Shown here one piece after another: positions 6,810 to 52,612 of a stretch of 64,000 bases of DNA. The notes beneath the pieces are model-generated. The model was not told the DNA's origin, made no database searches, and saw only the letters and a program-made list of their open reading frames with translations. This DNA is from Candidatus Binatia bacterium. Its GTDB lineage: Bacteria > Desulfobacterota > Binatia > UBA9968 > JAJDTQ01. The stretch lies in contig JAJDXX010000064.1 of NCBI GenBank assembly GCA_022823055.1, positions 34,788-98,787 on the forward strand, in the 5' to 3' direction. Position 1 is the stretch's first letter. The number at the start of each line of letters is the position of its first letter. Both the position numbers and the translations under genes were made by a program.

Positions 6810-8032
6810 TACTTGGTCTCCAGGTCCACGTCCCCCCAATTCTCCGCTCCCATCATCATCGCCCAGCGGGCGTAGAATCGGCGCAAGCGCTTGCCGCCGC
6901 CGAAGGCGCCGGACTTTTCCTCGTGGCCGAGGTGGGCCTGGATGTTCTGGGGGTAGCGGCGGGCGATGACGCCGCGGGCGGTGCCGGTGCACTGCTCCCA
7001 GTTGTTCATGTCGTCCTGCTCGAGGTTGCCGCTGGGGCCGAAGGTCTGGGTGAGGTGGCGGCGCATGGCGGTCTTGATCTCGGCGGGGGCTTCCTTGTCG
7101 ACGACGCAGTAGGACCAGATCTCGGTCTTCTCGGGGCCGCGGGGGTGCCACACGCGGATCATGTGGCGGATGAAGTTGGGGGAGACGTTGGGGAAGACGG
7201 TGGTGACGAGACCGGCCTGCCGGGCGAGGTCGGGGCCGATGCGCTGCACGGCTTCGTCGAAGTGGTCGAGGAGGTAGTCGCGGATGATGCCCCCGGCGAC
7301 CCGTGTGAAGCCGATGTCGTCGGAATAGGGGCGGGGCTCTTCGTTGGTGCGCGGGTAGGACAACTCGTCCACGGGCACCTCACGCACGGACACGTGGGTG
7401 ACGGTGTGGTGGCCGTCGTCGCCGAAGAAGTTGTCGGCGGCGTACTTCCAGTTGGCGTGCATCACCCACTTGTGCACGCCGCCGATGATCTCGGTGCCGC
7501 CGGCGCGGCGGTCGAACATGACGCCCAGCTCCTGCTCCTGGCCGCCGAGGTAGTCCAGCAACGGCGGCGCCTTGGCGTCGAAGGTGGCGAAGATGAGACC
7601 CTTGTGGACGTCGAGCTGGGCGACTTCCACGAGCCCCCACTGCTTCATGTCCAGCTCGTTGCTGTAGATCTCCTTCATGCCGGGCACGCCGATGAGCTTG
7701 CCGTCGTTGCCGTAGCACCAGCCGTGGTAGGTGCACATGAAGGAGGTGGCGTTGCCCTGGTCGGCGCGGCACACGCGGTTGCCGCGGTGGCGGCACACGT
7801 TGAGGAACGCCCGGATGACGCCGTCGGCGCCGTGGCACAGCAGCACGGGGTCCTCCCCCATGTAGGTGGCGAGGAAGTCGTTGGGGTTGGGGATCTGGCT
7901 CTCGTGGCCGAGGAACAGCCAGCAGCGCGCGAAGATGCGTTCCAGCTCCTGCTGATAGATGTCCTGGGAAACGAAGATGCGGCGGTCGAGCAAGCCTTGT
8001 CGGGTATCCACGAGATCGTTCATCTGGCTCAT
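6803..8032 (-). CDS. Rieske aromatic-ring-hydroxylating oxygenase alpha subunit, copy 1
   Basis: 409 aa. Rieske motif CRHRGNRVC...CTYHGWCY. Catalytic-domain His pair in [20 protein letters not shown]. Confidence 0.9.
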
Positions 8033-49364: not shown

Positions 49365-49387
49365 GGGGCCCCCTTCTGCCCCTGCCG

Positions 49388-49475
49388 GACGATCTCTTCC
49401 TTGCATTCGGCCCGGACGCAACTTGGTTTTCGACCACCGGATGCGGCTGCCGCGACATCCCAACGGGCTTCGTTT
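49388..49475 (+). pseudogene. decayed fragment of an L-serine dehydratase (sdaA-like) gene
   Basis: Aligns by eye to 51521-51609 of the intact sdaA at about 80% identity with one 1-nt indel. Encodes DDLFLAFGPDA/LVFDHRMRLPRHPNGLRF. Confidence 0.75.
49456..49475 (+). repeat. left copy of the exact 20-bp direct repeat CATCCCAACGGGCTTCGTTT
   Basis: Identical 20-mer at 51590-51609. Homology ends at its 3' edge. Confidence 0.85.
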
Positions 49476-49489
49476 TCTATCTCCTCCAC

Positions 49490-49528
49490 TTGACTTATAG
49501 CTCTAAAAGCGTTACCTATTGCGTAACG
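49490..49528 (+). promoter_or_regulatory. candidate higBA promoter and operator
   Basis: TTGACT (49490-49495), a 17-nt spacer, then TACCTA. An inverted repeat CGTTAC-N7-GTAACG (49510-49528) overlaps the -10. Confidence 0.45.
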
Positions 49529-49544
49529 TGATTGAGCCGCTTCA

Positions 49545-49880
49545 ATGGACATCGTTTTCCGCACCCGCAAACTCGAAAGGACCTTCAACAGCGTGGCTGC
49601 GTTGCAGAAGACCTATGGGGCGCAGATGGCCAACGTCATCATGATGCGAATGGCGGTTCTCAGGGCAGCCCATAACCTGGCCTTGGTGCCGACCACCAGA
49701 CCGGATAGGCGACATCAGCTCAGCGGGGATCGGGCGGGACAGTTCGCCATCGATCTCGTCCACCCCCATCGGCTCGTATTCGAACCCAGTACCCAGCCAC
49801 CCCCGCGCAATGACGACGGAGGGATCAACGCGCAACAGGTCACCGCGATCACGATCTTGGACGTGATCGACTATCACTAA
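49545..49880 (+). CDS. higB: HigB-type (plasmid-maintenance killer) toxin, RelE/ParE superfamily
   Basis: 111 aa. ...FRTRKLERTFNS... and the C-terminal ...ITILDVIDYH are typical of the HigB/killer family. Confidence 0.85.
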   Translation: MDIVFRTRKLERTFNSVAALQKTYGAQMANVIMMRMAVLRAAHNLALVPTTRPDRRHQLSGDRAGQFAIDLVHPHRLVFEPSTQPPPRNDDGGINAQQVTAITILDVIDYH

Positions 49881-49892
49881 GGGAGGAGACAC

Positions 49893-50990
49893 ATGGCGAC
49901 GGCAACCAACCGATACAAGCCGAACTACGCGGTCCCGCCGGGATGGCTCCTTGAGGAGCGCCTGGAGGTCCAGGGGATTTCACATGCCAAGTTCGCGCGC
50001 AGGTGCGGACGCTCTCCCAAGCTGATCAGCGAGATCATCGCAGGCAAAGCGCCGCTCGAACCGGCCACGGCGCTCCAGTTCGAGAAGGTGCTTGGCGTTG
50101 ATGCCGGCATCTGGCTTGGGATCGAGGCCGACTATCAACTTCACAGGGCTCGGGAGGCTGAGGCCACGGAAGCGGCTGCGGCGGTGGACTGGGCCAAGGC
50201 CTTTCCGGTCCGGGAGTTGGTCAAGCGAGCCTGTTTCCCACGCCCGGAATCGGATGTTGATGCAGTAGCCAAGTTACTGGCGTTTTTCGGAGTCGGTTCC
50301 ATCGACGCGTGGACCGGACGCTACGGCCTCGCGAATGTCGCCTTCCGGCACTCCCCAAGCTTCAAGAGCAACAAGACTGCATTGATCACCTGGCTGCGGC
50401 TTGGTGAACTCGAAGCCGAACGCCAGGATTGCGTGGACTACGACGAAAACCGATTTAAACACGCGGTTCGGAGTATCCGCGAACTGACCCGCAAACCGGT
50501 TGATGAGGCGCTGCGGGGAACGGAAAGGCTGTGCAACGGGGCCGGCGTTGCTCTGGCGTTGGTGCCTCCGCTGCCGAAGACAGCCCTCAGCGGTGCAGCT
50601 TGGTGGCTCTCGCCGAGGAAGGCCGTTCTTCAGCTAAGCGCCCGGCACAAGTCCGACGATCACCTCTGGTTCAGCTTCTTCCACGAAGCCGCGCATATTC
50701 TTCTTCACAGCAAGAAAAGCGTTTTTGTTGACGAACGTGGCGGAGACGACGCCGGGCTGGAAGCTGAGGCCAACGAGTGGGCGTCCAACACTCTCGTCCC
50801 GCAACGTGTGTGGGAACCATTCGTTGCCGCATCGCTGTTCAGCGAGCAAGCCGTCCGGGCATTTGCCGACCAGCAGGGAATTGCTCCCGGTATCGTTGTT
50901 GGCAGGCTTCAACACAAGAGGCTTGTTCCCTGGACGCGCCTGAACAGCCTGAAGGCCAAGTTAAGCTGGACGACCACCTCAAATGGCTAA
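49893..50990 (+). CDS. HigA-type XRE HTH antitoxin fused to an ImmA/IrrE (M78) metallopeptidase domain
   Basis: 365 aa. The N-terminal HTH is GISHAKFARRCGRSPKLISEIIAGKAPLEPATALQFEKVLG. The C-terminal half has FFHEAAHILLH (HExxH) and EAEANEWASNTLVP. Confidence 0.85.
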   Translation: MATATNRYKPNYAVPPGWLLEERLEVQGISHAKFARRCGRSPKLISEIIAGKAPLEPATALQFEKVLGVDAGIWLGIEADYQLHRAREAEATEAAAAVDWAKAFPVRELVKRACFPRPESDVDAVAKLLAFFGVGSIDAWTGRYGLANVAFRHSPSFKSNKTALITWLRLGELEAERQDCVDYDENRFKHAVRSIRELTRKPVDEALRGTERLCNGAGVALALVPPLPKTALSGAAWWLSPRKAVLQLSARHKSDDHLWFSFFHEAAHILLHSKKSVFVDERGGDDAGLEAEANEWASNTLVPQRVWEPFVAASLFSEQAVRAFADQQGIAPGIVVGRLQHKRLVPWTRLNSLKAKLSWTTTSNG

Positions 50991-51208: not shown

Positions 51209-52612
51209 ATGTTTCTGAGCGTCTTCGATCTCTTCAAGGTGGGCGTCGGTCCGTCGTCCTCCCACACGATGGGGCCGATGGCGGCGGCCGGCGCTTTTGT
51301 CGAGCTGGTTCGGGAACGCTGCCGGGGCGAGGCGCCGCCGGGCCACTGGCTGCGCATCCGCGCTTCGCTCCACGGCTCTCTCGCCTTTACCGGCAAGGGG
51401 CACGCGACGGACCGGGCGGTCATGCTCGGGCTCCTGGGCCATCGGGCCGCGGACCTCGACCTCGACCTGGCGGAGGCCGACCTCGACTCTCTGCGGCAAA
51501 ACCGCCTCCTGCCTCCATCGGACGGCCTCTCCCTTGCGTTCGACCCGGACGGCGATCTGGTTTTCGACCGGCGCGTGCGTCTGCCGGGTCATCCCAACGG
51601 GCTTCGTTTCGAGGCGGTGGATTCGGCCGGCGCGGTCCGGCTAACCCAAGTCTACTATTCGATCGGCGGCGGCTTCATCGTCACCGAAGAAGAACTCGCC
51701 CGGGGCGCGCCCGCAGCCGACGGCGAGGATGAGGACCCGTCCTGCCCGTTCCCCTTCGACACTGCCGCGGCCATGCTGCGGATGGCAGGCGAAAGCGGCA
51801 AGAGCATCGCGGAGATGGCACGCGCGAACGAGCGCGTCCGGCGGTCCGACGGTGAGTTGGACGCCGGGCTCCGGTCCATCTGGAGCGCGATGAACGAATG
51901 CGTGGAGCGTGGCCTGGCCGCGCGCGGCGAACTGTCCGGTGGGTTGAAAGTGAAGCGGCGCGCGAGCGCGCTGTTCGAACAGTTGCACCGCGAACGGGAT
52001 TCCAACCGGATGCAGCCGCACGTGGTCACGGACTGGCTCAACGTCTACGCCATGGCCGTGAACGAAGAGAACGCGGCCGGCGGCAAGGTGGTGACCGCGC
52101 CCACCAACGGCGCGGCCGGGGTCGTTCCGGCGGTGCTTCGATACTATCGGGACCACTGCATCGGCGCCGCCGAGGACCTCATCCCCGACTTCCTGCTCAC
52201 CGCGGCCGCCATCGGCGGGCTCATCAAGCACAACGCGTCGATCTCCGGCGCCGACGCCGGCTGCCAGGCCGAGGTCGGCTCCGCCTCCGCCATGGCAGCC
52301 GCCGGCCTGTGCGCCGTTCTCGGCGGTACGCCCGCGCAGGTCGAAAACGCGGCCGAGATCGCCCTCGAACACCACCTCGGCATGACCTGCGACCCGGTGG
52401 CGGGCTTGGTCCAGATCCCCTGCATCGAGCGCAACGGCATCGGCGCGAACAAGGCGGTGGCGGCCGCCTCGCTGGCGCTGCGAGGAGACGGCAGCCACTT
52501 CATGCCCCTCGACAACTGCATCGCGGCCATGCGCGAAACCGGCCAGGAAATGAGCACGCGCTTCAAGGAGACCAGCCTCGGCGGCCTCGCCGTGAACCTG
52601 CCGCAGTGCTGA
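51209..52612 (+). CDS. sdaA: L-serine ammonia-lyase (Fe-S dependent, single-chain)
   Basis: 467 aa. [24 protein letters not shown]..., GHPNGLRF and the C-terminal alpha-domain motifs. Confidence 0.95.
51590..51609 (+). repeat. right copy of the exact 20-bp direct repeat CATCCCAACGGGCTTCGTTT (inside sdaA)
   Basis: Identical to 49456-49475. The two copies are 2134 bp apart. Confidence 0.85.

Follow-up and report, generated by a model that had tools for sequence, protein, structure and literature searches.

A divergent HigB toxin gene paired with a HigA-M78 metalloprotease fusion gene in a Candidatus Binatia genome

The window analysed in this study is a stretch of 64,000 nucleotides (nt) from a Candidatus Binatia bacterium (GenBank assembly GCA_022823055.1, contig JAJDXX010000064.1, positions 34,788 to 98,787 of the forward strand), and positions are counted from its first letter unless another locus is named. 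It carries a two-gene cassette in which higB (49545..49880, + strand), encoding a divergent member of the HigB family in the RelE superfamily of toxins, is followed by a gene (49893..50990, + strand) whose product of 365 amino acids (aa) joins a HigA-like XRE helix-turn-helix (HTH) domain to an M78 (ImmA/IrrE) zinc metalloprotease domain. The pattern of gene decay among related loci makes it very probable that, at native expression, HigB acts as the toxin and the fusion as its antitoxin and repressor. The cassette is probably a self-contained, horizontally mobile and autoregulated type II toxin-antitoxin (TA) unit. A role of the M78 domain as the switch that releases the toxin is proposed more tentatively.

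The two gene products

A preliminary description of this DNA, made from its letters alone, had reported a 111-aa HigB with the C-terminus ILDVIDYH and, after 12 nt, a 365-aa protein, and the coordinates of the open reading frames agree with this account. The 12-nt spacer contains a Shine-Dalgarno sequence for the fusion gene (GGGAGGAG, 49881-49888, + strand). Both reading frames are real genes and not chance frames of GC-rich DNA, as each belongs with hundreds of homologues at 60-90% identity, and the ratio of nonsynonymous to synonymous substitution rates (dN/dS) was 0.14-0.24 in both higB and the fusion gene, indicating purifying selection.

The 111-aa protein returned zero matches in scans of Pfam, NCBIfam and PADLOC, even at E<=10. 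The HigB label of the preliminary description therefore found no direct counterpart in these collections, but it was borne out by a family profile, a fold model, the catalytic residues and a direct match to phrog_3066 of PHROGs, annotated as 'toxin of TA system' (2.8e-9). Proteins of this length form a tight family that has no precomputed Pfam domain and is labelled 'killer suppression protein' or 'HigB-1' by some sources. An exhaustive profile search collected 2,043 representative relatives, 108 of which were aligned together with the window protein (109 sequences). The profile PF05015 (HigB-like_toxin) was matched by 68 of the 109 aligned relatives, and the family profile, when compared with solved structures, matched GraT (6f8s_B, 4.5e-8) and Proteus vulgaris HigB (6e-6). 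An AlphaFold2 (AF2) model built on a shallow alignment of 25 sequences was unusable, with a predicted local distance difference test score (pLDDT) of 46; the 109-sequence alignment remedied this and gave a model with a pLDDT of 96.6. The best Foldseek matches of that model were the P. vulgaris HigB structures (probability 1.00, template modelling score 0.73-0.80), which have the microbial-RNase fold of RelE and HigB.

The residues His54, Asp90, Tyr91 and His92 are critical in HigB (PMC5027501), and they correspond to H57, D109, Y110 and H111 of the small protein. Among the 109 relatives these positions are conserved in 106, 100, 86 and 108 sequences, respectively. The subfamily differs from canonical HigB of ~93 aa by a specific insertion of ~20 aa with the pattern PxPxxxDGGxD at residues ~82-100, which probably explains the failure of the Pfam model; we refer to it as the long-HigB subfamily. 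Because the family profile, the confident model and all four catalytic residues concur, the small protein is called a divergent HigB, with a predicted activity as a ribosome-dependent mRNA endonuclease.

The preliminary description had also placed a HigA-type HTH in the first ~90 aa of the long protein and an M78 signature in its C-terminal half, and both assignments were confirmed. NCBIfam TIGR02607 (antidote_HigA) matched residues 14-88 (49932..50156, + strand) above its cut-off (4.1e-13, 49 bits against 47.7), while HTH_3 and HTH_31, two profiles that the preliminary description had suggested for this comparison, scored slightly below theirs. The fusion-family profile matched the solved HigA structures 3cec (2e-11), 2icp, 4mcx and GraA (6f8s_A), in the range 1e-11 to 1e-7. 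The HTH domain is the most conserved segment of the fusion, with a mean conservation of 0.85 among 81 homologues. Judged by these profiles, the N-terminal third of the fusion is an unambiguous HigA. It is followed by an Ala/Glu-rich linker (residues 89-100, 50157..50192, + strand), which is the least conserved segment (mean conservation 0.58) and, by analogy with studied systems, a candidate cleavage region.

Pfam PF06114 (Peptidase_M78) matched residues 227-307 (6.6e-7, 29.6 bits, cut-off 22), in the region (residues ~230-330) for which the preliminary description had called for such a hit, and the metallopeptidase core was delimited to residues 226-310 (50568..50822, + strand). The core is also matched by the capP profile (3.3e-8). 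It contains FFHEAAHILLH at residues 262-272 and EAEANEWASNTLVP at residues 290-303; the HExxH motif itself occupies residues 264-268 (nt 50682-50696), and E292 is the putative third zinc ligand. This spacing is comparable with that of H97, H101 and E128 in CapP. No cysteine lies between HExxH and E292, and a cysteine switch of the CapP type is therefore absent. Among the 81 homologues, which come from many phyla, the segment LWFSFFHEA (including H264 and E265) and H268 are conserved in at least 98%, and E292 in at least 90%. With an active site that is nearly invariant, the M78 domain is under selection and not vestigial, and the sequences point to a functional domain.

This conservation bears on the explanation that the protease is catalytically idle and provides only a scaffold for dimerisation, toxin docking or ligand sensing. 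Such a reading can appeal to the resemblance of the HigA-like domain alone to complete stand-alone HigA antitoxins, and to the fact that activity has been shown for no HigA-M78 fusion. The conservation of HExxH, its flanks and E292 at 90-100% across phyla is hard to explain without catalysis, and we regard an idle protease as very improbable.

The remaining parts of the fusion are a middle region (residues 101-225, 50193..50567, + strand) and a C-terminal tail (residues 311-365, 50823..50987, + strand; mean conservation 0.72). Residues 96-225 and 307-365 matched no Pfam family, the former even at E<=10. The middle region is covered by the PADLOC profile PD-Lambda-2_B (PDLC03982), which matched the fusion over residues 23-343 (1.1e-35), and the fusion was further matched by phrog_2439 (4.9e-21). 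Several frames of ~330-420 aa in other genomes share only the middle-plus-M78 part (profile positions ~96-353; contigs G229:C9, G282:C1, G201:C45, G129:C198, G232:C25 and G145:C12), and presumably have other N-termini; one further frame (G070:C25) shares only positions 161-342 of the fusion profile. The middle region may thus form a module of its own that goes together with the protease.

Gene decay and the polarity of the pair

The assignment of toxin and antitoxin rests on a comparison of 81 loci, 80 of them selected by similarity to the fusion. The small gene was located in 79 of the 80 loci, and in 76 it lay 11-40 nt upstream of the fusion gene; the lone exception is cut by a contig edge. 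Both genes are intact in 67 of the 81 loci. In nine loci higB is broken, by stop codons in three, frameshifts in four and truncations in two, while the fusion is intact and retains HExxH. In two more loci (L003 and L071) the fusion is intact, and the edge of a contig has cut off part or all of higB. The fusion gene is 3.3 times as long as higB, and random hits would be expected there more often, whereas the observed ratio was 9:1 toward higB. Decay that strikes higB first, against the expectation from length, is typical of a pair whose toxin can be lost and whose antitoxin cannot.

The nearest relatives agree with this pattern. In G016, whose fusion is 95% identical to that of the window, a clean in-frame deletion has removed higB codons 25-111 and left the fusion intact (locus L086, G016:C54, 1430-1520, equivalent to 49545-49910 of the window). 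Codon 24 of higB is joined to the fusion ATG, and all catalytic residues are gone. The G016 junction could yield a product of 389 aa with a 24-aa HigB leader. The ratio omega (dN/dS) of this orphan fusion was 0.35, calculated from few substitutions. In G013 only the final 15 codons of higB survive, beside 309 codons of the fusion.

Searches anchored on the small protein were performed in 31 relatives and 301 genomes of the phylum. Wherever the contig continues downstream of an intact long HigB, a fusion follows directly, and no active higB without a fusion was found in these genomes. The phylum sample comprised 18 loci including that of the window; the match to the fusion ends at position 273 of 360 in one locus, G130. 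A 142-aa variant of long HigB, which matches positions 1-90 only and has no C-terminal DYH, was seen in two genomes (G038:C475:8725-9003 and G151:C238:4295-4573), and no fusion was detected beside either copy.

Three loci carry a TAG stop at the codon of the invariant Trp-100, at the boundary between the HTH domain and the rest of the fusion, with ~260 intact codons after it (L023:618-620, L044:5795-5797 and L030:6298-6300). In L023 and L044, which are 98% identical and of which the former abuts a contig edge, higB is truncated. In L030 higB is unbroken, but its catalytic Asp is replaced (D109Y; EYYH for DYH). L030 is 78% identical to L023 and L044, and the tree needs two origins of the TAG, though it may also accommodate one. 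Programmed readthrough and a functional split between HTH and protease were considered for this codon and rejected as the leading interpretation. As the toxin is already dead, by truncation or by D109Y, in all three loci, the TAG is most simply interpreted as ordinary decay. Another degenerate locus, L057, has two stop codons in higB and a second, partial HTH copy (7205-7528; residues 1-108, 55% identical) ~120 nt 3' of its full fusion gene.

The opposite polarity was considered as well, in which the HTH-protease fusion would be a toxic effector, for example through proteolysis of a host target, and the HigB-like protein its inhibitor or sensor. This is the arrangement of PD-lambda-2; among tested systems, it alone has a B profile with a strong match to the window's fusion (1.1e-35, residues 23-343). 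PD-lambda-2B is toxic alone and is rescued by the HigB-like PD-lambda-2A (Vassallo 2022, PMC9519451). Together with this precedent, two features of the sample weigh against our assignment, namely that loci chosen by similarity to the fusion are biased toward intact fusions, and that some of the frameshifts are possibly errors of metagenome-assembled genomes (MAGs) built from long reads. For a toxic fusion, however, the nine loci with broken higB, as well as G016 and G013, would be lethal, as they keep an intact or mostly intact fusion, HExxH included, next to a higB that is dead or deleted. Furthermore, no orphan active higB was found in the searches above, all catalytic residues of HigB are conserved, the small protein is not matched by the PD-Lambda-2_A profile, and a search of the genome for PD-Lambda-2_C, weak by itself, gave no match. 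We therefore judge a reversed polarity improbable. HigB as toxin and the fusion as antitoxin and repressor, the polarity that the preliminary description had assumed, is the assignment favoured by the comparative evidence, in which the small gene decays first and no active small gene occurs without the fusion.

Operator, cassette boundaries and distribution

A conserved palindrome, CGTTAC-N7-GTAACG (49510..49528), lies upstream of higB at the position expected for a -10 element. Across 72 aligned upstream regions it takes the form RTTAC-N7-GTAAY, ~34 nt 5' of the higB start; GTTAC-N7-GTAAC is exact in 37 of the 72 loci, which belong to different phyla, and many others differ by about one mismatch, as judged by eye and uncounted. 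The HigA-like HTH domain presumably binds at this palindrome, and a palindrome in place of the -10 element is the standard layout of autorepression. Upstream of it, the -35-like hexamer TTGACT (49490..49495, + strand), read from the sequence, marks the putative promoter of the cassette, and many of the 72 upstream regions have a TTGACA-like hexamer at a similar distance (again by eye and uncounted). A scan of the cassette with the sigma-70 consensus called no promoter, for want of a good -10 element, and no terminator was called after the fusion gene.

The boundaries of the cassette were obtained from four other members of the genus (L087-L090), whose homology to the window extends only from ~49505 to 50976, with unrelated flanks. 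Since the homology is confined to this interval, the mobile unit is a cassette of ~1.47 kb consisting of the operator, higB and the fusion gene. Within this one genus the cassette occupies different chromosomal sites, and the homology starts at the operator and stops at the last fusion codons. No recombinase and no repeats were seen.

In the window the cassette lies between pgi upstream and sdaA (L-serine dehydratase) downstream. Its GC content of 0.56-0.65 contrasts with mostly 0.67-0.73 in the housekeeping neighbours. Between pgi and the cassette is a decayed internal piece of sdaA of 108 nt (49369..49476, + strand), ~80% identical to positions 51503-51610 of the resident sdaA with a 1-nt deletion, which marks the junction on the left side of the insertion. 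The fragment terminates in an exact 20-bp repeat, CATCCCAACGGGCTTCGTTT, and its homology stops exactly at 49476, where the promoter region of the cassette begins. This suggests that the cassette once lay inside a foreign copy of sdaA or arrived with one. Genome G009 was examined as an empty pgi-sdaA site; its sdaA is 96% identical and it has no cassette, but its upstream context differs, and it was rejected as a clean empty site.

More than 4,500 clusters are homologous to the fusion; at least 559 species-representative genomes carry relatives, as do 62 plasmids and 3 phages. The host lineages include Binatia, Alpha- and Gammaproteobacteria, Chloroflexota, Acidobacteriota, Rhodothermota, Gemmatimonadota, Nitrospirota and Deinococcota, among others. 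The nearest relatives of the window are Candidatus Binatia MAGs, and phyla are freely intermixed in the tree. At the genus level, a match was present in 10 of 18 other genomes, some of them carrying diverged paralogues and some remnants. Routine annotation at NCBI names these proteins 'ImmA/IrrE family metallo-endopeptidase' or 'HigA family addiction module antitoxin'. No third gene recurs in the 81 loci; the best neighbour family, a generic ABC ATPase, occurs in 11 of them. Another arrangement was seen on plasmid pCMU01 of Methylorubrum extorquens CM4 (L098, 628-3556), where a 47%-identical fusion homologue stands beside genes with adenylate/guanylate-cyclase and E2 domains, with an integrase nearby. 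No toxin is annotated upstream of this homologue, and the layout is reminiscent of immune operons regulated by CapP/CapH.

Proposed mechanism and relation to known systems

In the mechanism proposed here, the first gene would encode the toxin, a HigB-family ribosome-dependent mRNA endonuclease, and the second gene a combined antitoxin and repressor. The N-terminal HigA-like HTH domain would bind HigB and would also bind the palindrome that overlaps the promoter, thereby keeping the operon off. By analogy with ImmA/ImmR, IrrE/DdrO and CapP/CapH, the M78 zinc-protease domain would act as the release switch. Upon a stress or phage signal the fusion would be cleaved near the linker at residues 89-105, by its own protease domain or by that of the other subunit in a dimer, and HigB would then be set free, the operon derepressed and translation arrested.

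In the studied M78/XRE pairs a signal switches the protease on and the repressor is cut shortly after its HTH. CapP is turned on by single-stranded DNA (ssDNA) and cuts CapH at F82-R83, just past the HTH; IrrE cleaves DdrO in its dimerisation domain (PMC12828697); and ImmR is inactivated by ImmA, according to the summary given in PMC2701414. Cleavage near the variable linker is the simplest model for the window's cassette, because the protease and XRE parts form one chain here. Cleavage of the fusion in itself or in trans, as the way in which HigB is released, is a possibility that we entertain on the strength of this analogy at somewhat less than even odds. The fuller proposal is more tentative still. 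It holds that the M78 domain is a signal-activated self-cleaving switch that makes the HigB module independent of Lon/Clp, as the preliminary description had predicted, that the HigB insertion and the middle domain of the fusion form a sensing or docking surface, and that the cassette is a two-gene abortive-infection or stress sensor with a polarity opposite to that of PD-lambda-2.

Two considerations speak against the cleavage model. In the open-access literature, cleavage has been shown for no HigA-M78 fusion. Moreover, the domains of IrrE and CapP are arranged as peptidase-HTH-GAF, and both proteins detect ssDNA in a groove between peptidase and GAF domain, whereas the fusion is HTH-first and lacks a GAF domain as well as the cysteine switch of CapP. 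As a consequence of these domain differences, their ssDNA-sensing mechanism is not simply transferable to the fusion.

The same analogies can be read in favour of an ordinary HigBA pair, in which the HigA-like domain neutralises HigB, host Lon/Clp removes the antitoxin and the M78 domain cuts some other substrate. Candidates for that substrate are a phage protein, a different XRE repressor encoded by a resident mobile element, and HigB itself, possibly cut within its insertion. ImmA, IrrE and CapP each cut a separate protein in trans, and the long-HigB subfamily with its ~20-aa insertion strictly co-occurs with the fusions. The fusion also stays, partly constrained, after loss of the toxin, which hints at a function of its own, and its middle-plus-M78 part is found with other N-termini too. 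Against this, the cassette moves alone into unrelated contexts and has no conserved neighbour as a possible substrate, the sole XRE domain that is always present is the fusion's own HTH, and the omega of the orphan G016 fusion, again from few substitutions, suggests relaxed rather than independent selection. A separate substrate is accordingly considered unlikely, and self- or trans-cleavage of the fusion is kept as the working model. The preliminary description had not been aware of any mechanistic account of this architecture, and our survey of open-access papers likewise turned up no mechanistic work on proteolysis by HigA-M78 or RmrA antitoxins, and no paper showing the substrate or the trigger of the protease in protease-bearing HTH antitoxins.

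Compared with canonical HigBA modules such as those of Proteus vulgaris (HigBA) and P. putida (GraTA), the cassette shares the toxin-first order, the HigB fold and catalytic residues, the HigA-type HTH and a palindromic operator. It differs in the length of the antitoxin, which is ~100 aa in the canonical modules and 365 aa with a protease here, and in the ~20-aa insertion of the toxin that is missed by the Pfam model. With ImmA/ImmR, IrrE/DdrO and CapP/CapH it has in common an M78 metalloprotease that is genetically coupled to an XRE repressor; those systems, however, consist of two polypeptides and involve no toxin, whereas here a single chain stands beside HigB.

PD-lambda-2 of E. coli, an anti-phage system (PMC9519451), shares a HigB-like first gene and a second gene for a HigA-type Xre protein fused to a peptidase. 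It has three genes, of which the third, P4-antitoxin-like, is needed for defence, while the cassette has two. Its polarity, with a toxic B protein rescued by A, is the opposite of that indicated by gene decay in the cassette. No PADLOC family, PD-Lambda-2_A included, matched the small protein at E<=10, and PD-Lambda-2_C (PDLC03983) had no match in the whole genome, in a search that is weak on its own because the controls were silent too. The B component is thus present and A and C are missing, and for this reason the cassette is not assigned to PD-lambda-2 as a system.

RosmerTA (RmrT/RmrA; Millman 2022; NetFlax, Ernits 2023) is a phage-defence TA system for which cleavage of the HTH has been proposed (PMC10440598). 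Its antitoxin RmrA, whose deletion was not possible, is a protein of HTH and ImmA-type Zn-peptidase domains and is similar to the fusion in size and layout. Ten RmrA profiles matched only the protease part of the fusion, and weakly (best 4.1e-6, residues 189-305). The Rosmer toxins are unrelated to HigB, one of them being membrane-depolarising, and no RmrT profile of PADLOC matched the small protein. In view of the missing RmrT toxin, the cassette is not classified as RosmerTA.

The cassette fits an older and broader class, in which RelE-family toxins are coupled with Xre-COG2856 fusions. Makarova, Wolf and Koonin (2009, PMC2701414) listed COG2856-HTH fusions as partners of RelE and PIN toxins and, in a purely computational study, already drew the analogy with LexA-like autoproteases, so that the idea of a self-cleaving antitoxin was first put forward for fusions of this kind. 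Their example, the Microscilla plasmid pSD15, has the same architecture and order: it encodes a 368-aa ImmA/IrrE protein, 36% identical to the fusion, and 18 nt upstream of it a 110-aa RelE/ParE toxin. There is no essential difference from that class, although the long-HigB subfamily was not separated there, and the architecture, described since 2009, is not new. What is new is the recognition of a long-HigB subfamily missed by Pfam, together with the conserved operator and the evidence on polarity that gene decay provides.

Protease-bearing HTH antitoxins, including RmrA, PD-lambda-2B and the Xre-COG2856 fusions, are common in catalogues of defence and TA systems. The asymmetry of decay raises a question within this group, as PD-lambda-2B is toxic alone and yet orphan fusions of the present family persist in nature. 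The subfamily described here would be a convenient model in that it is minimal and highly conserved, consists of two genes and an operator of its own, has relatives of its fusion in at least 559 species genomes and has a toxin whose biochemistry is well understood. Beside the systems compared above, the value of the locus lies in an abundant minimal model for the mechanistic question, and not in a new architecture.

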